From a phage, in the sequence record PZ527900.1: DNA of 44,330 nucleotides; one strand, 5' to 3'. A model generated the notes under the pieces. That model was given only the letters and a program-made list of their open reading frames with translations. It was not told the DNA's origin and searched no databases. Numbering within the stretch: the stretch's first letter is position 1; every line of letters starts with the position of its first letter. This document shows, one piece after another, positions 6,815 to 44,076 of the stretch. Position numbers and translations under genes: made by a program.

Positions 6815-6840
6815 TGATTTACTGGACACTATAGAAGGAA
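6815..6840 (+). promoter_or_regulatory. phage RNAP promoter P1
   Basis: ATTTACTGGACACTATAGAAGG; one substituted block (ACTGG for AGGTG) relative to the SP6 promoter ATTTAGGTGACACTATAGAAG. Confidence 0.8.
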
Positions 6841-6903
6841 AGCCTAGGTAATCTAGGTTTATAAGGTAGTATAGGTAATTAAGTAAATATAGGAGATATA
6901 AAT

Positions 6904-7281
6904 ATGTCTATGGTAACTACTCTGGTTTTCGTAGCTCAATACTTTCGTGGTCTGGCTAATAAATTCAAGGCCAAGGCTATCAAAGCTATTGAGTCCCGCA
7001 TCGAGGCAGTACAGGAGGAGCAGGTTGAAGTTGAGGAACATCGCAGCTCTCAAATGATTGACTGCCACAATCGCTACTATGCCTCTCGTGATGACCTCAA
7101 TGCACGTCAAGTCAAAGAGGTTGAAGAGATGTTAGCACGTCACCAGCAAGAGCGTGACAACCTGAAAGCGGATTTCGAAGAGAACAAGGCATCCATTGCG
7201 CTTGTACATCAAGCTGCATCTGACAGCCTGAAGAAAGAGATTGTTATGCTGGAAATGGAGTTAGACAATCTGACCAAGTAA
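6904..7281 (+). CDS. hypothetical coiled-coil protein (125 aa)
   Basis: AGGAG 8 nt upstream; Glu/Lys/Gln-rich heptad-like sequence; lies between P1 and P2. Confidence 0.6.
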   Translation: MSMVTTLVFVAQYFRGLANKFKAKAIKAIESRIEAVQEEQVEVEEHRSSQMIDCHNRYYASRDDLNARQVKEVEEMLARHQQERDNLKADFEENKASIALVHQAASDSLKKEIVMLEMELDNLTK

Positions 7282-7302
7282 TTACTGGACACTATAGAAC
7301 AA
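7278..7302 (+). promoter_or_regulatory. phage RNAP promoter P2
   Basis: TAATTACTGGACACTATAGAAC; overlaps the stop of the preceding gene. Confidence 0.7.
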
Positions 7303-7488
7303 TAGGGCGTGGGTTTGTCAGAGACAGTAAATCCAAGGTGCTCAGTGAGCGTAAAGCCTAAGCACGTCCTATGATTGTAAAGTGTTGAACCCTATTGTGC
7401 ATCTTGCACAACCCGACTCCATCGGGCTTTCTAGTGAGTACATGCTTGTGCTCAGTACAAAGCTAACTGACAATAGGAGACTAAATAA

Positions 7489-8298
7489 ATGGCACGTGGT
7501 GATTTTGATTTTGGTGCTCAGGTTACTAAAGCTGAAGGTAAAGTATTTAAGAACCCTGAAGTTGGTGATCATGAAGCAGTAATCTCTGGTATCATTCATG
7601 TTGGTTCCTTCCAAGATATTTTTAAGAAAGGTAATACCACTGAAGTTAAGAAGCCAGCAAACTTTGTTCTTGTTAAGATTGTCTTGATGGGCGATGATGA
7701 CAAGAATGAAGATGATTCTCGCATGGAACAATGGATGCCTGTACCGCTGAAGTCTGGTGACAAGGCAACACTGACTAAGTTCCTGAATGCAGTTGACCCT
7801 AAAGAATTGCTGGGTGGCTTCGATGACTTCATTGGCGAATGTCTGACTGCAACTATGGTTGGCTCTGGAGACAAGAATGACGATGGCTCATTCAAGTATG
7901 TTAACTGGAAAGGTTTTGGTGGTATGCCAGACAAGCTGAAGAAACTTGTTATTGCTCAGGTAGAAGAAGAAGGTTTGGCTATGACAGGTCACATTACCTT
8001 CGACAAGCTGACCAAAGAAATCATTGATGACATTCCTGCTAATCTGGTACGTCAATACCTCTTGAATGAGACACCTCGTGGTAAGAACCTGTCTGTTGCT
8101 GGCTCTCACGTAGAAGCAATCATTAAAGCTGCTCGTGAAGAAGACCCAGAATGGAAGAAGGCTAAGAAGAAAGACGAAGAAGAAGATGCTACTCCGGCTA
8201 ATCGTAAATCTCTGGACACTGGTGAGTCTGTTCCACAGGAAGTACCAGAAGCGGACAATGCGCCTGCACCGGAAATGGATGAGGACGCGGAATATTAA
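7489..8298 (+). CDS. hypothetical protein with acidic C-terminal tail (269 aa); possible ssDNA-binding-type replication protein
   Basis: AGGAGA 8 nt upstream; Lys/Asp-rich; ends PEMDEDAEY (acidic tail with terminal aromatic). Function is a guess from the tail and genomic position. Confidence 0.6.
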   Translation: MARGDFDFGAQVTKAEGKVFKNPEVGDHEAVISGIIHVGSFQDIFKKGNTTEVKKPANFVLVKIVLMGDDDKNEDDSRMEQWMPVPLKSGDKATLTKFLNAVDPKELLGGFDDFIGECLTATMVGSGDKNDDGSFKYVNWKGFGGMPDKLKKLVIAQVEEEGLAMTGHITFDKLTKEIIDDIPANLVRQYLLNETPRGKNLSVAGSHVEAIIKAAREEDPEWKKAKKKDEEEDATPANRKSLDTGESVPQEVPEADNAPAPEMDEDAEY

Positions 8299-8307
8299 GG
8301 AGGACGG

Positions 8308-8526
8308 ATGAAAGTACAAATCGTAACCCTGCACTGCAAGCGTGGCATTACTACCCTCGGCGGCACAACTTTTCACTCCTTCTCTGAAGGGGAGACATAC
8401 GCCGACCTGCACTACATCTGGCGCGATGGACAGCACGTGGTGAACTACAGCGACCCAGCTACTGGGAAACGCCACGGCGTGTCGCTTCCGGCGCATGACA
8501 TTGCGCAGGTGAACACAGTTTTATAA
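8308..8526 (+). CDS. hypothetical protein (72 aa)
   Basis: Strong RBS TAAGGAGGA; followed immediately by a palindrome and promoter P3. Confidence 0.55.
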   Translation: MKVQIVTLHCKRGITTLGGTTFHSFSEGETYADLHYIWRDGQHVVNYSDPATGKRHGVSLPAHDIAQVNTVL

Positions 8527-8527
8527 A

Positions 8528-8543
8528 GTCTCACGTGTGAGAC
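8528..8543. repeat. 16-bp palindrome GTCTCACGTGTGAGAC (copy 2 of 6)
   Basis: Perfect inverted repeat starting 2 nt after the stop at 8526 and 15 nt upstream of P3. Confidence 0.8.
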
Positions 8544-8556
8544 AAATCGGTGTCCG

Positions 8557-8582
8557 GTATTTACTGGACACTATAGAAGAGA
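8557..8582 (+). promoter_or_regulatory. phage RNAP promoter P3
   Basis: TATTTACTGGACACTATAGAAGAG. Confidence 0.8.
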
Positions 8583-8630
8583 AGAATTTTAATCGGCGAT
8601 AATGCCATAACCAACAAAAGGAGAATTAAT

Positions 8631-8999
8631 ATGTTCGCTATTGAAACTATCGTAAACCGTGTTGTTAAAGGTGCTGCTCTGGTATCCGTTGAGTCTTTCA
8701 TTATCGTCGATGAAGCTGGCTCTCTGGTCGCTGGCACTAAAGCCTATGACACCCGTGAAGAAGCTCAGGCTAAGATTGACAGCATGGGTAACTTCGCTGC
8801 TGGTCTGGAGTTCGCTCGTGCTTGCTTCCCTGAGCAGGCTGACAAAGCTCAAATTGGTAAGGCTAACATCGTAGCTGAATATCTGGACTGGATTGCTGCT
8901 GGTAAACCAGTGAAAGAAGTTAAAGCTGCTGAAGAAGCTGAAGTAGTAGAAGACGTAGCTGCACCGGAAGTACCGGTAAGCGAAGAGGAGGAGTTTTGA
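8631..8999 (+). CDS. hypothetical protein (122 aa), probably highly expressed; acidic C-terminus ending EEEEF
   Basis: AAAGGAG RBS; own promoter (P3) and hairpin terminator (9058); codon choice dominated by GCT, CTG, GAA, GTT, GGT. Confidence 0.65.
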   Translation: MFAIETIVNRVVKGAALVSVESFIIVDEAGSLVAGTKAYDTREEAQAKIDSMGNFAAGLEFARACFPEQADKAQIGKANIVAEYLDWIAAGKPVKEVKAAEEAEVVEDVAAPEVPVSEEEEF

Positions 9000-9057
9000 T
9001 AATAGTAGGTGTTGCCTCTGTTAGTCCTAGTTGACTATCACGCTCACCCATCTAATG

Positions 9058-9090
9058 CCCTGTCTGCCTTAGTGTAGGCAGGGTCTTTTG
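9058..9090 (+). terminator. hairpin plus U-tract terminator
   Basis: CCCTGTCT...AGGCAGGG 8-bp stem followed by TCTTTTG; near-identical in design to the terminator after the capsid gene. Confidence 0.55.
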
Positions 9091-9115
9091 CGTAATAGTT
9101 ATTGGAGAATGAATT

Positions 9116-9388
9116 ATGCCGACTATTGAATCTCGAATTACAATGGACATTAGCTACAATGCAATCACCAGACAATACATTGGAGTGGCCTATGATTACA
9201 AAACTGGTGAGAAGCTAGTGGAGGTGAGACAATGGGATGACTATTGGTTAAGACAGAATCTCCACGATGCGGTGTCCTCCTTCTTGAAGGAGTGGCCTAC
9301 ATGCGACCAAACTTCAACTTCGGAGCTACAGTATCGGAAGACAATAATCTCATCCTGTGGCCAACTGAAGGTAATCGAATCGCTTTAA
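9116..9388 (+). CDS. hypothetical protein (90 aa)
   Basis: GGAG 8 nt upstream; overlaps the start of the exonuclease gene. Confidence 0.4.
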   Translation: MPTIESRITMDISYNAITRQYIGVAYDYKTGEKLVEVRQWDDYWLRQNLHDAVSSFLKEWPTCDQTSTSELQYRKTIISSCGQLKVIESL

Positions 9389-10329
9389 TAGACGCTGATA
9401 TGCTACCCTACATCGTAGGTTATACTATCAGTGACATGACTTATGTACGAGCTACCACTCGTGTTAAGTCAGGACAAGTCCCATCAATCAAAGATACACC
9501 TGAGTGTAAGCAAGCGTGTGACCGTGTGAACTCCTTGCTTAATTCTTGGGTGTATGCAGCAGAGTGTGATGCAGCCAAGTTATTCATGACGAAATCAGAA
9601 GCTAACTTCCGTGTCCGCCTAGCATTCACCAAGCCTTACAAGGGTCAGCGTAAGACCGAGAAGCCTCCATTTTTCTATGAATTGCGAGAGCATCTCTTAG
9701 CGGTTCATGGTGCAATCTTGGCAGATGGTGAAGAAGCAGATGACCTCATGAGCATTGCACAATGGGATAGCCACCGCCGCTTCCAGCAAGATACAGGTAA
9801 CGAGTTTCCTATCGGTAGTCCAGAGCATAAAGCATTCTCTGATACTTGCATCGTTTCCTTAGATAAGGACTTGATGATTGTTCCCGGTTGGCATCTTCAG
9901 CCGGGTCAAGAGAAGAAATGGGTAGAGCCTATGGGTTGGCTTGAGTTACGCCGCAAGGCTAATGGTCAAGTCAAAGACCTAAAAGGTGCAGGCATCATGT
10001 TTCATTACGCACAGATGGTGATTGGTGATGACATTGATAATTATGCTGGCATACCCAGTCGTGGTGCTAAATATGCCTATGACCTTCTCAAAGATTGTAA
10101 GACAGAGAAAGAGTTGTACATGGCAGTGCTTGGTGCTTACAAGGCTAAGTTCGGACATGGACAAGTTAAGATTAAGAATTACCGAGGTGGTTATCGTATC
10201 GGCAAAGCATTTGACCTGATGCTTGAATGTGGTCGCTTGGCTCACATGGCTAGGTTCAAAGGGGATATATGGCGAGCCGATAAGAACCCAATCTTGTGGG
10301 GAGATGATGCGAAATGGTTAGCAAATTAA
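9301..10329 (+). CDS. 5'-3' exonuclease, FEN-like (T7 gp6-like)
   Basis: AAGGAG 8 nt upstream of ATG 9301; N-terminal IALIDADMLPYIVGY resembles the T7 gp6 N-terminus; acidic cluster GEEADDLMSIA; sits upstream of endonuclease VII. Confidence 0.8.
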   Translation: MRPNFNFGATVSEDNNLILWPTEGNRIALIDADMLPYIVGYTISDMTYVRATTRVKSGQVPSIKDTPECKQACDRVNSLLNSWVYAAECDAAKLFMTKSEANFRVRLAFTKPYKGQRKTEKPPFFYELREHLLAVHGAILADGEEADDLMSIAQWDSHRRFQQDTGNEFPIGSPEHKAFSDTCIVSLDKDLMIVPGWHLQPGQEKKWVEPMGWLELRRKANGQVKDLKGAGIMFHYAQMVIGDDIDNYAGIPSRGAKYAYDLLKDCKTEKELYMAVLGAYKAKFGHGQVKIKNYRGGYRIGKAFDLMLECGRLAHMARFKGDIWRADKNPILWGDDAKWLAN

Positions 10330-10724: not shown

Positions 10725-11724
10725 GCTTCGCAGCTTGTACAAAGACTCCGAGGTACTTGATGCAATCGAGCAAGCTACCGACGAGAAAGGTAATGTTAAC
10801 TACAATGAGATGGCACGTATATTATCGTGTCACCCTGTGGGTAAGAAGATTACCCGCCAATTGGCTCGATACTGGCATGGTCAATTCAAGAAGACCAAGA
10901 AGAATGGTGATTATTACCAGACTCTTCTGCAAGAAGATAAGCGTATCAAAGAAGAGCGTAAGCTCAGGACTCCTGACCGCTACGAGGATTTGGCTATTGT
11001 ACCATTGCCTGACTCGCCTCATCGAAGTGTACTGGTAATACCTGATACTCATGCACCTTATGAGCACCCAGATGCTTTAGAATTCCTTGCAGCAGTTGCA
11101 GCACGTTATCGTCCAGACACTGTGGTTCATTTGGGGGATGAGGCGGATAAACATGCCTTGTCATTCCACGATTCGGACCCAAATCTAGATAGTGCTGGCA
11201 TGGAGTTAGAAAAGGCTCGTGTCTTCATGCACAAGTTGCACAAGATGTTCCCTGTGATGCGCCTGTGTCATTCTAATCACGGCTCTATGCACTTCCGTAA
11301 GGCGAGCGCCAAAGGTATCCCTGTGCAATATCTGCGTACCTACCGTGAAGTCTTCTTCCCAAATGGAGGTGGCGACCAGTGGGATTGGCAGCACACTCAT
11401 GTACTTGAATTGCCGAACGGTGAACAGGTAGCGTTCAAGCATCAACCTGCTGGCTCTGTCCTAGCAGATGCAGCACATGAGCGTATGAATCTAGTGTGTG
11501 GACATTTGCACGGTAAGATGTCTGTGGAGTATGCACGTAATACTCATGAGCAATACTGGGCGGTGCAGGGTGGCTGTCTGATTGATGAGTCGTCTCGTGC
11601 ATTCGCCTATGGTCGTGAGTCTAAGTACAAGCCAGCATTAGGTTGTGTGGTTATTCTGGATGGTGTGCCGCACATTGTCCCGATGCAAACCAATAGTGAC
11701 AATCGCTGGATTGGCAAGATTTAG
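10693..11724 (+). CDS. calcineurin-like metallophosphatase
   Basis: Motifs VIPDTHAPYEH (DxH), HLGDEADKH (GDxxD) and HSNHG (GNH-like). Start uncertain: ATG 10693 has a weak RBS, whereas in-frame TTG 10717 has AAGGAGG 6 nt upstream. Confidence 0.7.
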   Translation: MQERRRLKLGKLRSLYKDSEVLDAIEQATDEKGNVNYNEMARILSCHPVGKKITRQLARYWHGQFKKTKKNGDYYQTLLQEDKRIKEERKLRTPDRYEDLAIVPLPDSPHRSVLVIPDTHAPYEHPDALEFLAAVAARYRPDTVVHLGDEADKHALSFHDSDPNLDSAGMELEKARVFMHKLHKMFPVMRLCHSNHGSMHFRKASAKGIPVQYLRTYREVFFPNGGGDQWDWQHTHVLELPNGEQVAFKHQPAGSVLADAAHERMNLVCGHLHGKMSVEYARNTHEQYWAVQGGCLIDESSRAFAYGRESKYKPALGCVVILDGVPHIVPMQTNSDNRWIGKI

Positions 11725-11741
11725 GTGACACTATAGAACAA
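11719..11741 (+). promoter_or_regulatory. phage RNAP promoter P4 (identical to the SP6 promoter core)
   Basis: ATTTAGGTGACACTATAGAACA; followed by hairpin GGGCAGGTAGTGGCTTGCCC at the transcript 5' end. Confidence 0.8.
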
Positions 11742-11791
11742 AGGGCAGGTAGTGGCTTGCCCTTGATTGTATAGTGAGTGGAGGAGTTAAT

Positions 11792-12130
11792 ATGTTACAG
11801 CATCATTATGACAATACCTGTATGGCCTGCTTAGGAGAAGGTGAAGGGTACCTGCATACTTGCAAAGGCCCGGTTAAGTCCAACATGTTGGACAACAATA
11901 TGGTTACTAAGCCGAAGCACTATGAGTTCTTCGAAGGTGTAGAGGCAATCACTATCATTGCCCGTAGCATGACCGAGAAGCAATTCGCTGGGTATTGCAT
12001 GGGTAACGCTTTGAAGTATCGCCTGCGTGCAGGTAAGAAATTCAACACTGAAGAAGACCTGAAGAAAGCAGACTACTACAAAGAGTTATTCCAGAAGCAT
12101 CGTCACGAATGTATTGATGAGGATATTTGA
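11792..12130 (+). CDS. DUF3310-like phage protein (112 aa)
   Basis: GGAGGAG 5 nt upstream of ATG; PKHYEF...GNALKYRLRAGKK...DLKKADYY pattern typical of the DUF3310 family (recalled). Confidence 0.55.
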   Translation: MLQHHYDNTCMACLGEGEGYLHTCKGPVKSNMLDNNMVTKPKHYEFFEGVEAITIIARSMTEKQFAGYCMGNALKYRLRAGKKFNTEEDLKKADYYKELFQKHRHECIDEDI

Positions 12131-14077: not shown

Positions 14078-15628
14078 ATGAAACAGAGCACAGATTTGGA
14101 GTATGGAGGTAAGCAGTCTAAGATACCTAAGCTATGGGAGAAATTCTCCAATAAACGTAGCTCTTTCCTTGATAGGGCAAAGCATTACTCCAGACTAACC
14201 TTGCCCTATCTGATGAATGACAAAGGTGATAACGAGACTTCGCAGAATGGATGGCAAGGTGTAGGTGCTCAAGCAACTAACCATCTAGCCAACAAGCTGG
14301 CGCAAGTGCTATTCCCTGCACAGCGTTCCTTCTTCCGTGTAGACTTGACTGCACAAGGTGAGAAGGTTCTTAATCAGCGTGGTCTGAAGAAGACAGAGCT
14401 AGCTACTATCTTTGCTCAAGTGGAAACACGGGCAATGAAAGAGTTAGAGCAACGTCAATTCCGGCCTGCTGTGGTAGAGGCATTCAAGCATCTTATTGTT
14501 GCTGGTAGTTGTATGCTATACAAGCCAAGTAAAGGTGCAATCAGTGCTATCCCGATGCATCATTATGTAGTTAACCGTGATACTAATGGCGACCTGTTAG
14601 ACATTATCTTGCTACAAGAGAAAGCCTTACGCACCTTTGACCCAGCTACACGTGCTGTAGTAGAGGTTGGCTTGAAAGGTAAGAAGTGCAAGGAAGATGA
14701 CAGCATTAAGCTATACACACATGCTAAGTATCTTGGTGATGGATTTTGGGAACTCAAGCAATCTGCTGATGATATTCCTGTCGGTAAGGTAAGTAAAATC
14801 AAATCAGAAAAGCTACCTTTCATTCCACTGACTTGGAAGAGAAGCTATGGTGAGGATTGGGGTCGCCCTCTTGCAGAGGATTACTCCGGCGATTTATTCG
14901 TTATCCAATTCTTATCTGAAGCGGTTGCCCGTGGTGCTGCATTGATGGCAGACATCAAGTACCTGATTCGTCCGGGTGCGCAGACTGATGTTGATCACTT
15001 TGTTAACTCTGGCACTGGTGAGGTTGTCACTGGTGTAGAAGAGGACATCCATATTGTACAGTTAGGTAAGTACGCAGACCTCACACCTATTAGCGCGGTT
15101 CTAGAGGTGTATACTCGCCGTATCGGTGTTGTCTTCATGATGGAGACAATGACACGCCGTGATGCCGAACGTGTTACTGCTGTAGAAATCCAGCGAGATG
15201 CGTTAGAGATTGAGCAGAACATGGGTGGTGTATATTCCCTCTTTGCTACTACTATGCAATCGCCAGTAGCGATGTGGGGTCTGCTGGAGGCAGGAGAGTC
15301 CTTTACTAGTGAACTAGTGGACCCTGTGATTGTCACAGGTATTGAAGCATTGGGTCGCATGGCTGAACTGGATAAGTTGGCAAACTTTGCCCAGTACATG
15401 TCGTTGCCTCTGCAATGGCCTGAGCCTGTCATAGCTGCTGTGAAATGGCCTGACTATATGGATTGGGTGCGTGGTCAAATCTCTGCTGAACTGCCATTCC
15501 TTAAATCGGCTGGAGAGATGGCACAAGAGCAGGAAGCACAGATGCAAGCACAGCAAGCACAGATGCTTGAAGAAGGTGTGGCTAAGGCCGTACCGGGTGT
15601 AATTCAACAAGAACTTAAGGAGGCGTAA
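14078..15628 (+). CDS. head-tail connector (portal) protein, T7 gp8-like
   Basis: WQGVGAQATNHLANKLAQVLFP and RDAERVTAVEIQRDALEIEQNMGGVYSLF match conserved T7 gp8 segments as recalled; 516 aa. Confidence 0.9.
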   Translation: MKQSTDLEYGGKQSKIPKLWEKFSNKRSSFLDRAKHYSRLTLPYLMNDKGDNETSQNGWQGVGAQATNHLANKLAQVLFPAQRSFFRVDLTAQGEKVLNQRGLKKTELATIFAQVETRAMKELEQRQFRPAVVEAFKHLIVAGSCMLYKPSKGAISAIPMHHYVVNRDTNGDLLDIILLQEKALRTFDPATRAVVEVGLKGKKCKEDDSIKLYTHAKYLGDGFWELKQSADDIPVGKVSKIKSEKLPFIPLTWKRSYGEDWGRPLAEDYSGDLFVIQFLSEAVARGAALMADIKYLIRPGAQTDVDHFVNSGTGEVVTGVEEDIHIVQLGKYADLTPISAVLEVYTRRIGVVFMMETMTRRDAERVTAVEIQRDALEIEQNMGGVYSLFATTMQSPVAMWGLLEAGESFTSELVDPVIVTGIEALGRMAELDKLANFAQYMSLPLQWPEPVIAAVKWPDYMDWVRGQISAELPFLKSAGEMAQEQEAQMQAQQAQMLEEGVAKAVPGVIQQELKEA

Positions 15629-16552: not shown

Positions 16553-16578
16553 GTATTTACTGGACACTATAGAAGGGA
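16553..16578 (+). promoter_or_regulatory. phage RNAP promoter P5 (capsid promoter)
   Basis: TATTTACTGGACACTATAGAAGGGAGA. Confidence 0.8.
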
Positions 16579-16627
16579 GAAATATCTCCCTAAATTATCA
16601 ATTTGATTTATAAGGAGACCATAATAC

Positions 16628-24717: not shown

Positions 24718-24733
24718 GTCTCACATGTGAGAC
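24718..24733. repeat. 16-bp palindrome GTCTCACATGTGAGAC (copy 3 of 6)
   Basis: Perfect palindrome; extended stem GGCTTGTCTCACATGTGAGACAGGTC followed by TTTAT. Confidence 0.8.
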
Positions 24734-24764
24734 AGGTCTTTATGATAGGCACTATGGAGGAACT

Positions 24765-27700
24765 ATGGAACAAGATATTAAAAATAATTGGGCTGGTTAT
24801 GTCCAGTCCACTCCTGAGCCGTTTTCTATTGAGGCGGCTCCGGTATCGGCTCCTACGATACGCCAGCGTAATGAGTTACAAGAGCAAGTTCTTGAAGCTA
24901 AAGCTGACGCGGACATCCTAGGGGCTGTGGGTGCTGCCTTCCAGAATGAGTGGCTGGCATTTGGAGGCAAGCGGTGGTATGACCGTGCCACCGCAGATTT
25001 CACACCTCAACCTGATTTTGAAATCCAGCCAGATAGACGTGAAGCACTTCGCTTCAAATATGGTACGGATATGATGCAGAAAATCACAGATGGTGTTCGC
25101 TCTGAGGATGAATTAAACTTCCGTATTCAGAATGCAGATGAAGACCTTGAGCGCAATAAACGTATTGCTCAGGCAGGCTGGGCGGGGTCTGTGGCAACGA
25201 TTGGCGCCGCTGTGCTTGACCCTGTTGGCTGGGTTGCCTCTATCCCAACTGGTGGTGCAGCTAAGGTGGGGCTTGTAGGACGTGCTGTTCGTGGTGCCAT
25301 TGCTGCTGGTGTGAGCAATGCCGCTATTGAATCCGTATTGGTACAAGGTGACATGACCCGTGATTTAGATGACATTATGGTAGCACTAGGCTCCGGTATG
25401 GCGATGGGTGGTGTTATTGGCGCTGTGGCACGTGGTAGGGCTACTAAACTCAGCGAGCAAGGCGACGATACGGCTGCTAGTGTTGTGCGAAGTGCAGACG
25501 CTGGGGACCGATATGTACGTGCCGTTGCCGATGACAGCATCGGTGCAATGCGTGTTAAGGGAGAAGAGGTGCTCACTGAGGGTGCATTTGATGTATCCAG
25601 TAAAGGTGAAGACTTGTTAAAAACATTGCAGCGAGAGGGTAATGCGATTGACATGACACCGCGCCGATGGGCCGGAACTATGTCTGCCCTTGGGACTGTC
25701 GTGCATTCCTCGCAGGATGCTAGTGTACGTGGCCTAGGTGCTCGCCTATTTGAATCACCACAAGGCTTAGGTATGCAGAAAGCATCTGCTAGTCTAATGC
25801 AGAATACCAACTTGAACCGTTTAAAGTCTGCTGATATGAACCGTTTTAATGATGGATTTGACTTATGGCTCAAAGAGAACAACATCAATCCGGTTGCAGG
25901 GCACACTAACTCTCACTATGTGCAGCAATACAATGAGCAGGTATGGGAGGCTGTTCGTATTGGCATGGATGAGTCCACACCTGAATCCATCCGCATGGCA
26001 GCTGAGGGGCAGCAGACTATGTACAGAGAAGCACTGGCTTTACGTCAACGCTCTGGTGAAGCTGGCTTTGAAAAGGTCAAGGCTGACAACAAGTATATGC
26101 CTGATATATTTGATAGTATGAAAGCCAGACGTCAGTTCGATATGCACGATAAAGAAGATATAATCGAACTCTTCTCTCGTGCCTATCAAAATGGTGCTCG
26201 TAAGATTCCAAAAGAAGCAGCAGATGAGATCGCACGAGCACAAGTGAATCGTGTTGCTGATGCTACCTTAACTGGAAGGCTTAGTTTTGAAAGGGCTATG
26301 TCCGGTCAGACTAAGGCGGAGTATGAAGCTATCATGCGTAAGGCTGGCTTTAGCGATGAAGAGATTGAAAAGATGGTAGAAGCTCTGGATAACAAAGAAA
26401 CCAGAGATAATATCTCTAATCGCGCTAAGATGAGTCTAGGGTTAGATGTTACTCAAGAATATAATGGTATTCGTATGCGTGACTTCATGAATACCAACGT
26501 AGAGGAGTTAACTGATAACTACATGAAGGAGGCAGCAGGTGGTGCTGCATTGGCTCGCCAAGGGTTCTCTACCTACCAGGCTGCACTTAATGCAATTGAC
26601 CTTGTTGAGCGAAATGCGCGTAACGCAGCTAAGAGCAGTAAAGAGAGTTTGGCGTTAGACGAAGAGATTCGTCAGATGCGAGAAGGTCTTCGCTTGATTA
26701 TGGGTAAATCTATTGATGCAGACCCACAAGCCCTGTCTACTAAGATGATGCGGCGTGGGCGCGACATTACAGGTGTGCTTCGCTTAGGGCAGATGGGGTT
26801 TGCACAGTTAGGTGAACTTGCTAACTTCATGGGTGAGTTTGGTATTGCTGCAACCACAATGGCTTTAGGTAAGCAATTTCGCTTTACCTCTAAGGCATTA
26901 CGCAATGGCGATGGCTTCTTCCGAGACAAGAACTTAGCAGAAGTAGAGCGAATGGTTGGCTATATTGGTGAGGACAACTGGCTGACAACGAAGGGAGCAC
27001 GTCCAGATGAGTTCGGTGACGTGACAACCATTCGTGGTGCTATGGCTCACTTTGACCAATCGATGAACTCAATTCGTCGTGCTCAGACCAACCTGTCCCT
27101 CTTCCGCATGGCTCAGGGTTCTCTGGAACGAATGACCAATAGGCAAATAGCCTTGTCTTTCATCGACCACCTTGAAGGTAAGAAGATTATCCCTCAGAAG
27201 AAACTGGAGGAGCTTGGTCTTACTCAGGAGTTCATGAGCCGTCTACAGAAACACTATGATGCTAACTCTAAAGGCTCAGGGTTGCTTGGCTTTGATACAA
27301 TGCCTTATGCCATGGGTGAGACTCTAGCTAATGCTATTCGTCGTAAGTCAGGTCTAATCATTCAACGTAACTTCATTGGTGATGAAGGTATCTGGATGAA
27401 CAAAGCCCTAGGCAAGACCTTTGCACAGCTTAAGTCCTTCTCTTTGGTGTCTGGTGAGAAGCAATTCGGTCGAGGCATTCGCCACGATAAGATTGGCCTA
27501 GCTAAGAAGACAGCCTTTGGCTTTGCTTTAGGTTCAATCGTGTATGCAGCGAAAGCCTACGTGAACTCTATTGGGAGAGAAGACCAAGATGAATATCTGG
27601 AAGAGAAGTTATCGCCTAAAGGGTTAGCCTTTGGTGCGATGGGTGTAATGAGTACAACTGCTGTATTTAGTCTAGGCGGAGATTTCTTAGGTGGCCTAGG

Positions 27701-29115: not shown

Positions 29116-29401
29116 ACATGCAGCTACAGAAGATGAGGTTGGCATCCTACATGGTGCTATTACCAAGATGTTCAACAAGAAAGCACAGGCAATACTGGAC
29201 ACTATAGAAGGGGACCCAGATGCAGCACTAGCTTTGGTATCCGGTAAGGATATTGGTGCCATGTGTAAGTGGGTTCTTGACAATGGAATTACAGCCACAC
29301 CTGCTGCACAGCAGGAAGAATCCAAGCTGTCTAAGCGCCTCAAGGCTATCCGAGAGGCATCCAGTGGCAAGATTATTCATTTTACAAAAGAGGATAACTA
29401 A
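29099..29401 (+). CDS. terminase small subunit (by position)
   Basis: 100-aa ORF directly upstream of the large terminase; GTG start with GGAGG upstream. Contains promoter P6. Confidence 0.6.
   Translation: MSVHNKHAATEDEVGILHGAITKMFNKKAQAILDTIEGDPDAALALVSGKDIGAMCKWVLDNGITATPAAQQEESKLSKRLKAIREASSGKIIHFTKEDN
29188..29214 (+). promoter_or_regulatory. phage RNAP promoter P6, intragenic
   Basis: AATACTGGACACTATAGAAGGGG inside the small terminase gene; the codons encode ILDTIEGD. Confidence 0.6.
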
Positions 29402-31299
29402 TGGCTAAGGCAAGAGAATCACAAGCGGAGGCTCTTGCCAGATGGGAGATGCTACAGGAATTACAGCAGACCTTTCCTTATACAGCGGAAGGTTTGCTCC
29501 TCTTTGCAGACACAGTTATTCATAACTTGATTGCAGGCAACCCTCATCTGATTCGTATGCAGGCTGATATATTGAAGTTCCTATTCTATGGACACAAGTA
29601 TCGCCTCATCGAAGCGCCCCGTGGTATCGCTAAAACTACATTATCAGCAATCTATACAGTCTTCCGTATCATCCATGAACCACATAAGCGTATCATGGTT
29701 GTATCTCAAAACGCCAAGCGAGCAGAGGAAATCGCTGGCTGGGTGGTGAAAATCTTCCGTGGCCTAGACTTCCTTGAGTTTATGCTACCGGATATCTACG
29801 CAGGGGACCGTGCCTCTGTTAAGGCATTTGAGATTCATTACACCCTACGTGGCAGTGACAAGTCGCCTTCTGTATCTTGTTACTCGATCGAAGCAGGTAT
29901 GCAGGGTGCTCGTGCTGATATTATCTTAGCGGACGATGTTGAGTCGATGCAGAATGCTCGTACCGCCGCAGGCCGTGCATTGCTTGAGGAGTTGACCAAG
30001 GAGTTTGAATCTATCAACCAGTTTGGTGATATTATCTACCTTGGTACCCCTCAGAACGTAAACTCTATCTACAACAACCTGCCTGCTCGTGGCTACTCGG
30101 TTCGCATCTGGACTGCACGTTACCCTTCAGTGGAGCAGGAGCAATGTTATGGTGACTTCCTTGCACCTATGATTGTGCAAGATATGAAGGACAACCCAGC
30201 ACTTCGCTCAGGTTATGGTTTGGACGGTAACAGCGGAGCACCTTGTGCCCCTGAAATGTATGATGATGACGTCCTTATTGAGAAGGAAATCTCGCAGGGT
30301 GCTGCTAAGTTCCAGCTCCAATTCATGCTTAACACTCGCATGATGGATGCTGACCGCTACCCTCTACGGCTGAATAACCTTATCTTTACCTCATTCGGTA
30401 CGGAGGAAGTCCCTGTGATGCCTACATGGAGCAATGACTCTATTAACATCATTGGCGATGCACCTAAGTATGGCAACAAGCCTACAGACTTCATGTATAG
30501 ACCTGTGGCCCGTCCCTATGAATGGGGTGCTGTTACTCGCAAGATCATGTATATTGACCCAGCGGGTGGCGGTAAGAACGGAGATGAAACGGGTGTAGCG
30601 ATTGTCTTCCTGCACGGAACATTCATTTATGTGTATCAGTGCTTCGGTGTACCGGGCGGATACCGAGAATCGTCCCTGAATCGCATTGTGCAGGCCGCAA
30701 AGCAGGCAGGGGTTAAAGAGGTATTCATTGAGAAGAACTTTGGTCATGGCGCGTTTGAGGCCGTAATTAAGCCGTACTTTGAACGGGAGTGGCCTGTCAC
30801 TCTGGAGGAGGATTACGCCACAGGACAGAAGGAATTGCGTATCATTGAGACGCTGGAGCCACTCATGGCGGCGCACAGGCTCATCTTTAATGCCGAGATG
30901 GTCAAGTCTGACCTTGAGTCAGTACAGCACTATCCACTTGAACTACGCATGTCCTACAGCCTTTTCAATCAAATGTCGAACATCACGATTGAGAAGAACA
31001 GCCTCCGGCATGATGACCGCTTAGACGCGCTGTATGGCGCTATACGGCAATTAACTTCTCAGATAGACTATGACGAGGTTACACGGATTAATCGCCTCAG
31101 AGCGCAGGAGATGCGCGATTACATCCAAGCCATGAACACACCTCACCTACGCAGGGCAATGCTCTATGGGGATTATGGAACTGAGCGAAGAGTGACCAAC
31201 ACCTCTGTAGCGATGCAGCAGCGGGTTTACGGTCGGAACTACCGGAATAAGTCCTCCAATAGAAATACAATTTCTGCAAGGATTTCAAGGACTTATTAA
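29401..31299 (+). CDS. terminase large subunit (T7 gp19-like)
   Basis: 632 aa; ATPase P-loop-like PRGIAKTT and Walker B ADIILADDVES; C-terminal nuclease region. Confidence 0.9.
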   Translation: MAKARESQAEALARWEMLQELQQTFPYTAEGLLLFADTVIHNLIAGNPHLIRMQADILKFLFYGHKYRLIEAPRGIAKTTLSAIYTVFRIIHEPHKRIMVVSQNAKRAEEIAGWVVKIFRGLDFLEFMLPDIYAGDRASVKAFEIHYTLRGSDKSPSVSCYSIEAGMQGARADIILADDVESMQNARTAAGRALLEELTKEFESINQFGDIIYLGTPQNVNSIYNNLPARGYSVRIWTARYPSVEQEQCYGDFLAPMIVQDMKDNPALRSGYGLDGNSGAPCAPEMYDDDVLIEKEISQGAAKFQLQFMLNTRMMDADRYPLRLNNLIFTSFGTEEVPVMPTWSNDSINIIGDAPKYGNKPTDFMYRPVARPYEWGAVTRKIMYIDPAGGGKNGDETGVAIVFLHGTFIYVYQCFGVPGGYRESSLNRIVQAAKQAGVKEVFIEKNFGHGAFEAVIKPYFEREWPVTLEEDYATGQKELRIIETLEPLMAAHRLIFNAEMVKSDLESVQHYPLELRMSYSLFNQMSNITIEKNSLRHDDRLDALYGAIRQLTSQIDYDEVTRINRLRAQEMRDYIQAMNTPHLRRAMLYGDYGTERRVTNTSVAMQQRVYGRNYRNKSSNRNTISARISRTY

Positions 31300-31320
31300 T
31301 TACTGGACACTATAGAAGGA
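31296..31320 (+). promoter_or_regulatory. phage RNAP promoter P7
   Basis: TAATTACTGGACACTATAGAAGGA overlapping the terminase stop codon. Confidence 0.75.
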
Positions 31321-33639: not shown

Positions 33640-33662
33640 ATTTACTGGACACTATAGAAGAG
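33640..33662 (+). promoter_or_regulatory. phage RNAP promoter P8 (tailspike cassette)
   Basis: GATTTACTGGACACTATAGAAGAG. Confidence 0.8.
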
Positions 33663-33742
33663 ATAAAGATAGTGCCGTTCTTTTGAGCGGCCTATTACTA
33701 GCCAATCTTCATAGGGAGGGTTGGGAAGTAATAGGAGATAAC

Positions 33743-37496: not shown

Positions 37497-37872
37497 ATGG
37501 AAACGTGGGTAACTATTCCTGGCTACCCACGGTATCAAGTGCCTACTCATGGACGTGTCAAATCGCTCATTGGTAATCACAAGATACTGAAGCCGGGCAA
37601 GTCAAAGAGTGGGTATTTAAATGTAGTTCTTAGTAACGAGGGAGGCAAGAGGACATTCCGTGTGCATCGCTTGGTTGCACTATGTCACTTGCCTAACCCT
37701 CATAACCTTCCCCTTAGTGAACCACAAGGATGAAGACAAGGCACATAATCATGTAGACAACTTAGAGTGGTGTACTGAAGAGTACAATCTAAAGTATTCA
37801 CGTGACTATGACAGGTCTTCTCTTAGTGTAACCCAAGGGAAGAAGAAGGTATGGCTTCCAGTTGACCTGTAA
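37497..37872 (+). CDS. second HNH homing endonuclease; frame broken by +1 C in a C4 run near 37710 (ORF pieces 37497-37733 and 37660-37872)
   Basis: AAGGAG RBS; N-part WVTIPGYPRYQV...HRLVALCHLPNP, C-part VNHKDEDKAHNHVDNLEWCTEEYN in the +1 frame. Confidence 0.6.
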
Positions 37873-38249
37873 CATTTAGGTAACAAAGTCAAAATTTTGA
37901 TATAGGCGTGTGTGGGGTGTCTCGGCCTCGGCCTCGCCGGGTTGTCCCCGTATGGGGTCGCTCGGCGGTTGGCTTGGGAATTGGTCTAGGCTGGTCCGTC
38001 TTCGACGGGTAGGCCGAGGCTTGCCTTGTACTCGCTTAGTGGTACACAAGGAGGGTGCCTAGGAAGCGCTAGGGCACGCCTTAGTATTGGACAAGGTGAT
38101 TGCCTTAGTGCAACCGCTTAGGGCTTACACAGGGCCATTCTGGGCCTTTATGGGCTATTGACAGGGTGGGCGGGTGTGGGCTATCTGTTCGTTTCGCCTA
38201 GCGGCTCAACTCAGCTCACTCCGCTTGCGCTACGTTCACTCGCTCACGT

Positions 38250-39654: not shown

Positions 39655-39655
39655 G

Positions 39656-39769
39656 ATGGAAAAGCAATATAACTTCATCTTTTCGGATGGTGTAACCCTG
39701 AAGTGTTCCTTGCGATTTGCCCAGATTCGTGAGGAAGTGCTAGGAACTACATACAAGTTATTTAGCTGA
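39656..39769 (+). CDS. possible small early protein (37 aa)
   Basis: GAGGAAG RBS 6 nt upstream; its 3' end overlaps promoter-like element P9. Confidence 0.3.
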   Translation: MEKQYNFIFSDGVTLKCSLRFAQIREEVLGTTYKLFS

Positions 39770-39782
39770 CACTATAAGAGAG
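39758..39782 (+). promoter_or_regulatory. variant phage promoter P9 (A at +1)
   Basis: ATTTAGCTGACACTATAAGAG: SP6-like -17 to -1 with C at -11 and AGAG instead of GAAG start; followed by a 7-bp hairpin. Confidence 0.45.
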
Positions 39783-39849
39783 GATTTAACAGGGCGTTAC
39801 TTGTTAGCGCCCGATTAAGTTTATCTCAATAAACCAAATAGGTGAATAT

Positions 39850-40797: not shown

Positions 40798-41139
40798 ATG
40801 TGTGGCAAACGCGGCAGACCTGTTAATCAGGAGAATGAAAAGCTAAGACAAGCCGCCAAAGAGCGAGGTGATAAGGTATATGACTCTATACAACCATGTA
40901 AACACGGGCATATAGCCCGCTTGGTATCAGACAATAGGTGCCACGCCTGTAAACTTCAAAAGGCTAAAAGGTACAGAGATGCTATGAATCTGGAGCAGAA
41001 AGAAAAGCAAATGGCACACGTCAGGGCTTACATGAAGAAGCGGTATGATAGTGATCCTGCTTTTCGTAAGTATCAAATTGTAAACAGCGAAATCAACCGC
41101 CACCTACGCGCACTGAATAAACTACTAGATATGGAGTAA
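40798..41139 (+). CDS. early hypothetical basic protein with Cys/His cluster (113 aa)
   Basis: GGAG RBS; [18 protein letters not shown] may bind zinc; directly upstream of RNAP. Confidence 0.55.
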
Positions 41140-41144
41140 ACAAG

Positions 41145-43772
41145 ATGCAAGATTTACATGCTATCCAGCTTCAATTAGAGGAAGAGATGTTTAACGGCGG
41201 TATTCGTCGCTTTGAAGCAGACCAACAGCGACAAATTGCATCAGGTAATGAGTCTGATACGGCTTGGAATCGCCGCCTATTGTCTGAATTAATCGCGCCG
41301 ATGGCTGAAGGTATTCAGGCATACAAGGAAGAGTATGAAGGTAAAAGAGGTCGTGCACCGCGTGCCCTTGCTTTCATTAACTGCGTAGAAAACGAAGTGG
41401 CAGCATATATCACGATGAAAATCGTAATGGATATGCTTAACACTGATGTTACCTTGCAGGCCATTGCCATGAATGTAGCGGACCGCATCGAAGACCAAGT
41501 GCGCTTCAGTAAGCTAGAAGGTCACGCCGCAAAATACTTTGAGAAAGTGAAGAAGTCGCTTAAGGCAAGTAAGACTAAGGCATATCGCCATGCGCACAAT
41601 GTAGCAGTAGTGGCTGAAAAGTCTGTAGCTGACCGTGACGCGGATTTCTCCCGCTGGGAGGCATGGCCCAAAGACACCTTGTTGCAAATAGGTACTACCT
41701 TGCTGGAAATCTTGGAGAATAGCGTATTCTTCAACGGGCAGCCTGTTTTCCTTCGTACCTTGCGCACTAACGGCGGCAAACATGGTATTTATTACTTACA
41801 AACTAGCGAACACGTAGGTGAATGGATAACGGCCTTCAAAGAGCACGTAGCGCAACTGAGTCCTGCCTATGCACCTTGCGTTATCCCTCCGCGTCCTTGG
41901 GTGTCTCCTTTTAATGGCGGTTTTCACACCGAGAAGGTAGCAAGCCGTATCCGTCTAGTTAAAGGCAACCGTGAGCACGTCCGTAAGCTGACCAAAAAGC
42001 AAATGCCAGCGGTATACAAGGCTGTTAACGCCTTACAGGCCACTAAATGGCAAGTCAATAAGGAAGTATTGCAGGTTGTTGAAGATGTTATTCGTCTCGA
42101 CCTTGGTTATGGTGTGCCTTCATTTAAGCCACTCATCGACCGCGAGAACAAGCCAGCTAATCCCGTGCCGTTAGAGTTCCAGCATCTAAGAGGCCGTGAA
42201 CTTAAAGAGATGCTAACGCCGGAACAATGGCAAGCCTTCATTAACTGGAAAGGCGAGTGCACCAAGCTGTATACCGCTGAGACTAAGCGCGGCAGCAAAT
42301 CGGCGGCAACCGTCCGCATGGTCGGGCAGGCCCGTAAATACAGCCAGTTTGACGCTATATACTTCGTGTATGCACTGGACAGCCGCAGCCGCGTCTACGC
42401 GCAATCTAGCACGCTCTCCCCGCAATCAAACGATTTAGGCAAGGCATTGCTCCGCTTTACCGAAGGGCAACCGCTAGATAGCGCTGAGGCGCTTAAATGG
42501 TTTTTGGTGAACGGGGCTAATAGCTGGGGTTGGGATAAGAAAACTTTTGACGTGCGCACCGCTAACGTGCTGGAGGGTGAGTTCCAAGATATGTGCCGCG
42601 ACATTGCAGCCGACCCGCTGACCTTCACTCAATGGGTGAATGCCGATTCGCCTTATGGCTTCCTTGCATGGTGCTTTGAATATGCGCGTTATCTGGATGC
42701 ACTGGATGAAGGTAAGCAAGACCAATTCATGACACACCTACCCGTCCATCAAGATGGTAGTTGCTCTGGTATCCAGCACTATAGCGCGATGTTACGCGAT
42801 GAAGTAGGTGCGAAAGCGGTAAACCTTAAGCCGTCCGACGAGCCGCAAGACATTTACGGTGCGGTTGCGCAGGTTGTTATACAGAAGAATTACGCCTACA
42901 TGAATGCAGACGATGCAGTAACTTTCACATCTGGCAGCGTCACCCTTACAGGTGCGGAATTGCGTAGCATGGCTAGCGCATGGGATATGATTGGAATCAC
43001 TCGCGGCTTAACCAAAAAGCCGGTTATGACCTTGCCATATGGTTCCACCCGCTTAACCTGCCGTGAGTCGGTTATTGATTACATCGTTGATTTGGAAGAA
43101 AAAGAGGCACAAAGGGCTATTGCAGAAGGGCGGACGGCGAATCCGGTGCACCCTTTTGATAATGACCGTAAAGACTATCTGACACCGGGCGCAGCTTATA
43201 ACTATATGACAGCCTTAATTTGGCCTTCAATCTCTGAAGTTGTTAAAGCCCCTATAGTGGCGATGAAAATGATTCGCCAGCTTGCACGATTTGCAGCTAA
43301 AAGAAATGAAGGGTTAGAATACCCCTTACCTACTGGTTTCATCTTGCAACAAAAGATCATGGCAACTGATATGCTACGCGTTTCTACTTGCTTGATGGGT
43401 GAAATCAAGATGAGTCTACAGATTGAAACGGATGTAGTGGATGAAACGGCAATGATGGGCGCTGCGGCCCCTAACTTTGTTCACGGGCATGATGCTAGTC
43501 ACCTTATCCTGACTGTATGTGACCTCGTGGATAAAGGTATTACATCCATTGCAGTTATTCATGACTCTTTTGGCACTCATGCAGGCCGCACCGCAGACCT
43601 GCGGGATAGCTTAAGGGCAGAAATGGTAAAAATGTATCAAGGTCGTAATGCCCTGCAAAGCCTGCTAGATGTACATGAAGAGCGTTGGCTAGTAGATACC
43701 GGCATCCAAGTGCCGGAGCAAGGGGAGTTTAACCTTGAAGAGATCTTAGTTTCTGACTATTGCTTCGCATAA
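41145..43772 (+). CDS. single-subunit DNA-directed RNA polymerase (SP6/T7 family)
   Basis: 875 aa; [42 protein letters not shown] and C-terminal ...DYCFA; N-terminus [32 protein letters not shown] matches SP6 RNAP as recalled. Confidence 0.95.
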
Positions 43773-43780
43773 TATTGATA

Positions 43781-43810
43781 GGCCATTCCTTCGGGAGTGG
43801 CCTTTTCTTT
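43781..43810 (+). terminator. rho-independent-type terminator after the RNAP gene (candidate early terminator)
   Basis: GGCCATTCC-TTCG-GGAGTGGCC (9-bp stem, UUCG loop) followed by TTTTCTTT. Confidence 0.6.
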
Positions 43811-43844
43811 ACCTGCTACCTGTAACATTTCATTAACATAAAGT

Positions 43845-43860
43845 GTCTCACATGTGAGAC
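43845..43860. repeat. 16-bp palindrome GTCTCACATGTGAGAC (copy 5 of 6)
   Basis: Directly abuts promoter P10. Confidence 0.8.
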
Positions 43861-43862
43861 TT

Positions 43863-43887
43863 ATATTTACCGGACACTATAGGAGAG
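43863..43887 (+). promoter_or_regulatory. phage RNAP promoter P10
   Basis: ATTTACCGGACACTATAGGAGAG. Confidence 0.7.
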
Positions 43888-44021
43888 AACCGTCGGAGAC
43901 GGGAGAGAGAAGGGAAGGTAAAGGATATAAAGGAAGTAATAAGTATTAAAGGTTATATAGGTTTACCTAGGAATACCTATTACCTTCTTCCTTCCTCTTA
44001 TTACTACTTAGAGGAAGGGCA
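43888..44021. other. AT-rich, purine-then-pyrimidine skewed segment between tandem promoters; candidate primary replication origin
   Basis: GA-rich left half (GGGAGAGAGAAGGGAAGGTAAAGG...), CT-rich right half (ACCTTCTTCCTTCCTCTTATTAC); contains AGGTTATATAGGT. Confidence 0.35.
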
Positions 44022-44037
44022 GACCTAGGTTGTCTCA
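44022..44037. repeat. 16-bp palindrome GTCTCACATGTGAGAC (copy 6 of 6)
   Basis: Directly abuts promoter P11. Confidence 0.8.
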
Positions 44038-44050
44038 CATGTGAGACTTG

Positions 44051-44076
44051 GTATTTACCGGACAGTATAGATAAGA
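44051..44076 (+). promoter_or_regulatory. phage RNAP promoter P11 (variant CAGTATAG)
   Basis: TATTTACCGGACAGTATAGATAAG, with C to G at -5 relative to the consensus. Confidence 0.5.

Follow-up and report, generated by a model that had tools for sequence, protein, structure and literature searches.

The window (the whole stretch of DNA analysed here, 44,330 nucleotides, record PZ527900.1) is a circularly permuted Vectrevirus genome, K1E/K1-5-like with approximately 90% nucleotide identity, and encodes its own single-subunit RNA polymerase. The polymerase is 97-98% identical to the enzymes of K1E, K1-5 and PSK8, 86% identical to that of SP6 and 35% identical to that of T7. Twelve phage promoters were found, although 11 had been counted in an earlier reading made from the letters of the DNA (the sequence-only reading). 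All of them lie on the + strand, co-oriented with the genes, and their slots correspond one by one to those of K1E, K1-5 and PSK8. The features are collected in Table 1.

Table 1. Promoters and related features of the window (promoter sequences are divided before position +1)
Feature	Sequence to -1	Sequence from +1	Coordinates	Strand	Remarks
Promoter	ATTTACCGGACACTATA	GAAGAG	2336..2358	+	inside primase/helicase gene 3' end
Promoter remnant	AACTTTGCAG (3-nt gap) CTATAG		3186..3201	+	gene-10-internal slot of K1E, K1-5, SP6
Consensus promoter	ATTTACTGGACACTATA	GAAGGA	6817..6839	+	3' of DNA polymerase gene
Promoter	AATTACTGGACACTATA	GAACAA	7280..7302	+	TAA stop of ORF 6904..7281 at -18..-16
Consensus promoter	ATTTACTGGACACTATA	GAAGAG	8559..8581	+	
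SP6-identical promoter	ATTTAGGTGACACTATA	GAACAA	11719..11741	+	gene 22/gene 23 junction
Gene 23, nucleotide kinase family			11792..12130	+	short 112-aa allele
Consensus promoter	ATTTACTGGACACTATA	GAAGGG	16555..16577	+	5' of major capsid gene
Promoter	CAATACTGGACACTATA	GAAGGG	29190..29212	+	within small terminase gene
Promoter	AATTACTGGACACTATA	GAAGGA	31298..31320	+	large terminase TAA stop (31297-31299) at -18..-16
Consensus promoter	ATTTACTGGACACTATA	GAAGAG	33640..33662	+	5' of tail spike gene
Variant promoter, A at +1	ATTTAGCTGACACTATA	AGAGAG	39760..39782	+	5' of gene 6 and RNA polymerase gene
RNA polymerase gene, single-subunit			41145..43772	+	875 aa
Specificity loop, 29 residues			43356..43442	+	by alignment with T7, SP6
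Promoter	ATTTACCGGACACTATA	GGAGAG	43865..43887	+	first of two tandem promoters
Variant promoter, G at -5	ATTTACCGGACAGTATA	GATAAG	44053..44075	+	5' of gene 8 and primase/helicase gene

The motif ATTTACYGGACACTATAG has six exact matches in the window (2336, 6817, 8559, 16555, 33640 and 43865), whereas 0.00 are expected by chance. When up to three mismatches were allowed, 12 matches were detected against 0.05 expected, exclusively on the + strand. The sequence-only reading had stated that nine promoters between 6815 and 44076 share an 18-mer. Only six match it. Nine promoters do share ACYGGACACTATAG, namely the six exact sites and those at 7280, 31298 and 29190, but this count needs the site at 2336, which is outside that range. 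The promoters at 7280 and 31298 (AATTAC..) and at 29190 (CAATAC..) have ACYGGACACTATAG alone in common with the exact six. The A at -16 in the 7280 promoter is present because the stop codon of the overlapping ORF covers this position.

The promoter set has the core GACACTATAG at -9 to +1, an AT-rich stretch at -17 to -13 and CYG at -12 to -10. G at -9 and A at -8 are found in all 12 promoters, C at -12 together with G at -10 in 10, and C or T at -11 in 11. The difference from SP6 in one block, which had been reported before, is real, and its position is corrected here to -12 to -10, where CYG stands against GGT in SP6. Candidate promoters at 24740-24757 and 25363-25380 were dropped as weak matches, the former overlapping a ribosome-binding site. 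Core matches on the minus strand, at 43252 and 4470, were dropped as well; both are without the upstream half and inside genes.

Three promoters (11719, 39760 and 44053) are outside the ACYGGACACTATAG group. Those at 39760 (ATTTAGCTGACACTATA followed by A at +1) and 44053 (containing GGACAGTATAG) are variants just as described previously. Both are also present in K1E, K1-5, PSK8 and NTNC80A; the 39760 variant occupies the same slot in these phages, and SP6 has AGTTATGTGACACTATAA there. The TGA stop codon of the gene 4 homologue (39767-39769) coincides with positions -10 to -8 of the 39760 promoter. After the polymerase gene, a terminator-like hairpin (43780-43803) is followed by the tandem promoters at 43865 and 44053. 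The gene-10-internal promoter, which is present in K1E, K1-5 and SP6, was destroyed in the window by a 3-nt deletion.

The three deviant sites might reflect graded strength, in which GGT (11719), GCT with A at +1 (39760) and CAGTATAG (44053), as weaker or stronger promoters, time early and middle expression, as T7 class II promoters do relative to class III. All three lie in the early and DNA-metabolism region, exact consensus sites stand 5' of the capsid and tail spike genes, and the conservation of the 39760 and 44053 variants among the relatives suggests selection for those sequences. However, the exact consensus sites 6817 and 8559 are also within the DNA-metabolism (early/middle) region, and overlapping stop codons account for part of each deviation.

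The site at 11719 had been called identical to the SP6 promoter, and our search agrees: ATTTAGGTGACACTATAG occurs only once in the window, at 11719-11736, and every base of the site from -17 to +3 agrees with the SP6 consensus. Its transcribed start is GAACAA, whereas the classical one is GAAGAG. A BLAST search of the phage collection with 76 nt around 11719 gave no identical record (best 94.7%). At this gene 22/gene 23 slot, the sequence is ATTTAGTTGA in K1E-type relatives and ATTTAAGTGA in SP6, one base different from the window in each case. Read from individual loci, the block of the slot is GTT in K1E, K1-5, PSK8 and 12 IMG/VR contigs, AGT in SP6 and eight IMG/VR contigs, and GGT in the window, the IMG/VR contig L007, PST_H2, NTNC80A and the genome of the enzyme "RNAP No. 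2049". Close relatives have either T or G at -11 of the slot, and in every lineage compared -12 is a purine and -10 is T. The 11719 promoter is a one-base variant of a conserved slot, and a K1E-type polymerase probably reads it normally.

A strong 5' hairpin is located at +6 to +29 of the 11719 promoter. The slot, the start GAACA(A/G)AGGG and the hairpin after it are kept in the SP6, K1E-type, Proteus PM93 and Klebsiella VLCpiA2a lineages, and the -9 to +1 core of the 11719 site is perfect. These observations argue against an unused, decaying promoter-like sequence, as does the transcription from the same sequence by a relative's enzyme in vitro (PMC13029058). Although the gene-10-internal slot was indeed lost in this genome, we consider a silent relic at 11719 very improbable.

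The sequence-only reading overlooked that 11719 is a conserved slot over a stop codon and on a mosaic junction. The TAG stop codon of gene 22 (11722-11724) forms positions -14 to -12 of the promoter, with its last base at -12, and SP6 and PM93 have TAA at the same promoter positions. The stop codon was considered as a hard constraint at -14 to -12, and this idea was dropped: with the consensus C at -12, gene 22 would gain only four codons before it ends at the TAG inside CTATAG. The constraint on the 11719 promoter is soft.

The 11719 promoter sits on the mosaic junction itself. On its 5' side, the identity of the window to Vectrevirus relatives is 87-100%, and to L007, whose polymerase is of the SP6 type, it is only approximately 67-92% (mostly 70-85%). 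From the promoter onward, the window and L007 share a 112-aa gene 23 allele that is absent from the other relatives compared, and the similarity between the two shifts abruptly at the promoter. The N-terminal part of gene 23 is common only to the window and L007 among the sequences examined, with 71-82% identity by 60-column window. The gene 22 3' end is K1E-like in the window and of the L007/PST_H2 type in NTNC80A. That L007 is the same phage as the window was rejected because its contig (L043) carries an SP6-type loop and has a DNA polymerase of only 82% identity.

A point mutation from T to G at -11 in place, with a coincidental SP6 identity and without exchange, would produce the same 11719 sequence. 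The site is a single base from the K1E-type sequence, its flanks from -60 to +50 are K1E/PSK8-like, and the L007 identity in the shared N-terminal part of gene 23 is only moderate. In contrast, GGT co-occurs with the rare gene 23 allele of a contig with an SP6-type polymerase, and the similarity to L007 changes abruptly at the promoter. Furthermore, NTNC80A and the RNAP No. 2049 genome carry several GGT promoters in different slots, for which one mutation is insufficient. A mutation in place is possible but doubtful.

The specificity loop of the window polymerase was aligned with those of SP6, K1-5 and K1E. It is identical to the loop of K1E and K1-5, as in a cognate polymerase of the K1E type. 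Between the window polymerase and SP6, the sole non-conservative change in the loop is S747 (codon TCT at 43383-43385) against R746 of SP6, aligned with T7 N748; K755 and S757 (T7 R756 and Q758) are unchanged. Other promoter-contact elements also differ between the SP6 and K1E types (R68/K68, D177/E177 and N192/G192). In T7, N748 is hydrogen-bonded to the -11 base (PMC8874028), and N748D is the key change towards T3 specificity (PMC11880802). When residue combinations of K1E or SP6 were grafted into T7 RNA polymerase, no activity was observed, and the authors noted that K1E and SP6 do not follow the T7-derived rules (PMC11880802). Since these grafts are inactive and the rules are not followed, the assignment of contacts by alignment (32-35% identity) is uncertain. 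A search of the PDB gave only T7 and mitochondrial enzymes and no SP6-type polymerase structure; therefore, the promoter contacts were inferred by alignment.

We also compared loops and promoters across genomes. All 13 genomes or loci whose loop is of the S-type have the consensus C[CT]GGACAC, and all seven with the SP6 loop have GGTGACAC-type promoters. In these phylogenetically non-independent genomes, the -11 base is C in 62, T in 56 and G in five promoters of the S-type, and G in 55 and A in three of the 58 promoters of the SP6 type. NTNC80A, a Vectrevirus with the same specificity loop, has three GGT promoters, and the RNAP No. 2049 genome has two. Further loop/promoter pairs exist in other genera. 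PM93 and VLCpiA2a combine Arg at the N748-aligned position with A or T at -11; Arg is thus not invariably paired with G there.

The enzyme RNAP No. 2049 has been assayed in vitro. Its genome has the same promoter set as the window, from which an S-type loop is inferred. Its activity was 3.5% of the T7 reference on the SP6 promoter and approximately 2% on its own consensus, on templates that also differ at +6, and the initially transcribed sequence alone changed activity up to 5-fold (PMC13029058). On a promoter matching the PM93 consensus, it was 0.18% (PMC13029058); this third template is the consensus that we found for Proteus phage PM93 (Acadevirus). Swapping the block had a smaller effect on activity than changes at +2 to +5, which took it from 2% to 10.6% (PMC13029058).

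The sequence-only reading had offered relaxed specificity of the polymerase in the block or graded promoter strength. The former is supported: it agrees with the -11 base, which is C, T and occasionally G in K1E types and almost invariably G in SP6 types, with Ser against Arg at the N748-aligned residue, with the GGT promoters of NTNC80A and with the activities of RNAP No. 2049. Graded strength for temporal control through the block is not supported and is unlikely: GGT is not weaker than the consensus in the sole available measurement, the +2 to +5 changes outweighed the block swap, and close relatives differ at -11 in the same slot.

Taken together, we favor, with a probability of about 0.72, a reading in which 12 cognate promoters stand in K1E/K1-5 slots, the consensus shift is linked to S747, and GGT was acquired with the gene 23 allele and is tolerated. 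The 12 sites would serve the phage's own polymerase. The family consensus ATTTACYGGACACTATAGAAG departs from SP6 at -12 to -10, likely via S747 in place of SP6 R746. N748 reads -11/-10 in T7; where the aligned residue is Arg, G at -11 is almost invariant, and Ser goes with C or T, with G tolerated. The 11719 site would represent an old promoter slot in its local version; T to G at -11 is all that separates it from the slot in other K1E-type phages, and the window enzyme would initiate at 11736. Most probably, the GGT variant arrived with the gene 23 allele, which also occurs in phages whose polymerase is of the SP6 type. It may persist because the S747 polymerase would be roughly as active on SP6-type promoters as on its own.

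As a tentative extension, Ser may be a naturally relaxed reader of -11, and compatibility may be one-way: K1E-type enzymes would use SP6-type promoters, whereas SP6-type enzymes would not use CYG promoters. If so, promoter-bearing modules could flow from SP6-like to K1E-like phages without re-tuning. This would account both for the GGT promoters scattered over the window, NTNC80A and the RNAP No. 2049 genome and for the lack of CYG in SP6-type genomes.

The promoter system is the ordinary set of a K1E/K1-5-like coliphage, and the observation is real and largely known. Its practical value is small, in that an apparent oddity in a standard K1E-like genome is explained. The K1E promoter/polymerase pair is in use as an expression tool (PMC6412113). 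K1E-type polymerases in such systems probably cross-read standard SP6 promoters, which matters for orthogonality. The -11 asymmetry and the promoters on mosaic junctions provide a modest example of polymerase/promoter pairs that diverge yet permit gene exchange.

The closest known systems include K1E and K1-5 (Vectrevirus). They have the same consensus and slots as the window, the same conserved variants (GCT with A at +1 in front of gene 5/6, and CAGTATAG 3' of the polymerase gene), and polymerases with an identical loop. They differ in GTT instead of GGT at the gene 22/23 slot and in the gene-10-internal promoter lost in the window; K1E has 13 sites against 12, with its weak CACTATGG match at 14583 left out of the count. 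NTNC80A and the RNAP No. 2049 genome are likewise of the K1E type and mix CYG with SP6-identical GGT promoters (three and two, respectively, against one in the window), one of them at the gene 22/nucleotide kinase slot. SP6 (Zindervirus) shares the core at -9 to +1, an identical AT-rich -17 to -13 and orthologous slots, and its own orthologue of the 11719 site, ATTTAAGTGA, is unlike the SP6 consensus. The SP6 type combines Arg with G at -11 (55 of 58), whereas the window combines Ser with C or T (11 of 12) and is not a classical SP6 system, having ATTTAGGTGACACTATAG with G at -11 at one of 12 sites. In the T7/T3 N748D switch, a single aligned loop residue likewise goes with changed bases around -11/-10 in two polymerase/promoter pairs that are alike in other respects. 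However, T7 and T3 are mutually exclusive, whereas the K1E-type Ser enzyme appears to accept an SP6-type promoter.

The window was scanned for ATTTACYGGACACTATAG, and six exact matches were found against 0.00 expected in shuffled sequences. When up to three mismatches were allowed, 12 matches were detected against 0.05 expected, all (12/12) on the + strand (Table). Looser scans of the window yielded nothing convincing in the way of further promoters. The sequence-only reading had counted 11 promoters, nine of them sharing one motif. The genome scan gives 12; ACYGGACACTATAG is indeed present in nine sites, while the quoted 18-mer occurs in only six, and one of the nine, at 2336, lies outside the range that had been assigned to them. 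The claim that one promoter is identical to that of SP6 was confirmed, as the SP6 18-mer ATTTAGGTGACACTATAG occurs once in the window, and the two variants were also as described (39760, GCTGA with A at +1; 44053, CAGTATAG). The block that differs is -12 to -10, which is CYG in the window and GGT in SP6. Strong hairpins (-12 to -17 kcal/mol) lie 5-15 nt after several promoters, at the predicted 5' end of the transcript. T7 late promoters are likewise trailed by 5' hairpins; those of the window are probably RNA stabilisers or processing signals.

Table. Coordinates of the features (window positions unless another genome or relative is named)
Feature	Position	Strand or size
Promoters (-17)	2336, 6817, 7280, 8559, 11719, 16555, 29190, 31298, 33640, 39760, 43865, 44053	+
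SP6 18-mer	11719-11736	
5' transcript hairpins	11741-11764, 16574-16591, 33668-33696, 39783-39821	
Remnant of lost gene 10-internal promoter	3186-3201	
Gene 23	11792-12130	112 aa
Gene 23, relative L001	19170-19709	
Gene 23, relative L002	17861-18364	
Gene 23, relative L109	20218-20664	
GGT promoters, NTNC80A	14869, 20145, 32196	
GTCTCACATGTGAGAC palindromes	24718-24733, 43845-43860, 44032-44047	16 nt
HNH endonuclease, two frames	37497-37733, 37660-37872	
Probable genome ends and terminal repeat	37920-38183	~260 bp
Extra ORF	40798-41139	113 aa
RNA polymerase gene	41145-43772	
Identical window ends	1-55, 44276-44330	55 nt

The polymerases of the window, K1E, K1-5, PSK8, SP6 and T7 were aligned, as the sequence-only reading had proposed for the specificity loop. 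The loop is the same in the four K1E-type enzymes (window, K1E, K1-5 and PSK8), and differs from that of SP6 by D742E, S747R, E753D, I760V and V764I. The sole non-conservative difference is S747/R746, which is aligned with T7 N748; at the counterparts of T7 R746, R756 and Q758, the two types do not differ. The T7 residue N748 makes a hydrogen bond to the base at -11, and the key substitution that shifts T7 toward T3 promoters is N748D (PMC8874028; PMC11880802). Further promoter-contact differences between the SP6 and K1E types are R68/K68, D177/E177 and N192/G192, which correspond to T7 R96, E207 and E222. The residue and base clusters of K1E and SP6 have already been set out separately, and these clusters gave no activity when grafted into T7 polymerase (PMC11880802). 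Therefore, the contact rules derived from T7 may not hold in every detail for these enzymes. No structure of an SP6-type polymerase was found in the PDB.

To pair loops with promoters, 74 IMG/VR loci with 10-kb flanks were fetched by DNA polymerase, and the promoters of each were discovered de novo. The S-type loop (Ser at the T7 N748 position) was accompanied by a C[CT]GGACAC consensus in 13/13 genomes or loci, and the SP6 loop by GGTGACAC-type promoters in 7/7. The loop of Proteus phage PM93 (..RTMLMGDIRMSLQ) pairs with RAGACCAC, that of the Klebsiella lineage VLCpiA2a with [GC]TGGCGAG, that of VyarbaL with CCACCCAG, and that of locus L041, which has F in place of K where T7 has R756, with TGTAGCAC. 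PM93 and VLCpiA2a possess Arg at the T7 N748 position, yet have A or T at -11. Bases were counted in 123 promoters from S-type and 58 from SP6-type genomes, which are not phylogenetically independent: C88/G34/T1 versus G35/C9/T7/A7 at -12, C62/T56/G5 versus G55/A3 at -11, and G82/T27/C10/A4 versus T38/G11/A8/C1 at -10. These counts point to -11 as the base that discriminates the two promoter types. With the same dependence among genomes, GGT is occasional in S-type genomes, whereas CYG never appears in SP6-type ones.

Activities are available for RNAP No. 2049, an SP6-family polymerase whose genome carries the window-type promoter set, of which GATTTAGGTGACACTATAGAACAA precedes the nucleotide kinase gene (PMC13029058). 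In an aptamer assay relative to a T7 reference, it gave 3.5% on the SP6 promoter, ~2% on its own consensus and 0.18% on a third promoter, and changes at +2 to +5 shifted the activity between 1.5% and 10.6% (PMC13029058). The third promoter matches the consensus that we found for PM93 (Acadevirus). Thus, the block swap is roughly neutral for this enzyme, and the initially transcribed sequence matters more for strength. Graded strength through the -12 to -10 block, one half of the earlier interpretation, is therefore unsupported; the other half, relaxed specificity at -11, has the better support. The S747-type polymerase of the window probably uses the SP6-identical site at 11719 normally.

Site 11719 is located where gene 22 (metallophosphoesterase) ends, and is followed by gene 23 (nucleotide kinase family) and the ligase gene. 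The same slot has GTT (ATTTAGTTGACACTATAGAACAAAGG) in K1E, K1-5, PSK8 and 12 IMG/VR contigs, AGT (ATTTAAGTGA..) in SP6 and eight contigs, and GGT (ATTTAGGTGA..) in the window, contig L007, Zindervirus PST_H2, Vectrevirus NTNC80A and the RNAP No. 2049 genome (PMC13029058). Thus, a single base separates the window from each of the other two forms, -11 in the case of the K1E type and -12 in that of the SP6 orthologue. The TAG stop of gene 22 forms promoter positions -14 to -12, where SP6 and PM93 have TAA. This overlap helps to explain the purine at -12 despite the lineage consensus C, although the constraint is soft because C there adds only four codons. At promoter 39760, the TGA stop of the gene 4 homologue begins with the T at -10.

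Upstream of promoter 11719, the window is 87-100% identical to its Vectrevirus relatives, whereas its identity to L007 is ~67-92% (mostly 70-85%); beginning at the promoter, L007 is equally close or closer. Among the relatives compared, the 112-aa gene 23 allele (MLQHHY...) is common to the window and L007 alone; the others have 146-179 aa with unrelated N-terminal halves and the C-terminal 80 residues in common. These 80 residues are nearly invariant while the N-terminal half is swapped across relatives, and the window's protein matches the kinase profiles in their C-terminal half only. Promoter 11719 thus coincides with a module boundary. The contig of L007, from which L043 also comes, encodes an SP6-type polymerase and has GGT/GGG promoters. 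NTNC80A has three GGT promoters despite an S747 polymerase 97.7% identical to that of the window, and the RNAP No. 2049 genome has two. Therefore, SP6-consensus promoters are scattered over several K1E-type genomes. The SP6-identical site is a one-base variant of a conserved promoter slot, overlapping a stop codon and lying on a mosaic junction.

By megablast of both halves, the window matched ~150 SP6-group phages, best of all Vectrevirus genomes (K1E, K1-5, PSK8 and many more), with ~88-92% identity across most of the length. The gene order is that of K1E, circularly permuted, with the primase/helicase gene at the window start. The starting bases of K1E and SP6 map to ~37920-38183, as do the final bases of K1E and K1-5; this interval therefore probably contains the physical ends, along with a direct terminal repeat that the assembly would have collapsed to a single copy. 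The identical window ends are the overlap left when the contig was assembled as a circle, so that 44275 nt are unique. An HNH homing endonuclease, split into two overlapping frames, lies immediately left of where the genome end is predicted; both pieces match phrog_59 and phrog_959, and the split probably reflects either a frameshifted pseudogene or an error in sequencing. An extra ORF separates gene 6 from the RNA polymerase gene, which are only 64 nt apart in K1E and K1-5; it matches nothing but PHROG families without known function, and these weakly.

K1E, K1-5, PSK8 and SP6 were scanned by the same procedure, and each window promoter has an orthologue that shares both its slot and its peculiarities. 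Ahead of gene 5/6, K1E, K1-5 and PSK8 have ATTTAGCTGACACTATAA as in the window, whereas SP6 has AGTTATGTGACACTATAA; in all three, as in the window, two promoters follow the polymerase gene, and the second is ATTTACCGGACAGTATAG. The AATTAC.. form is found in the two slots with a TAA stop codon over -18 to -16, and the CAATAC.. promoter is within the small terminase gene. A perfect palindrome, GTCTCACATGTGAGAC, is present in three copies, two of them 4-5 nt upstream of the tandem promoters past the polymerase gene and the third between genes 35 and 36. There are 4-6 intergenic copies in K1E, K1-5, PSK8 and NTNC80A and none in SP6; it may be a hairpin signal or a protein-binding site. The gene 10-internal promoter of K1E, K1-5, SP6 and NTNC80A is lost in the window, where 3 nt of its GACACTATAG core are deleted in frame. 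The observation that started this analysis is real, but what it describes is a promoter repertoire already known from K1E-type phages, here in a new Vectrevirus genome, and the K1E promoter/polymerase pair is already in use as an expression tool (PMC6412113).
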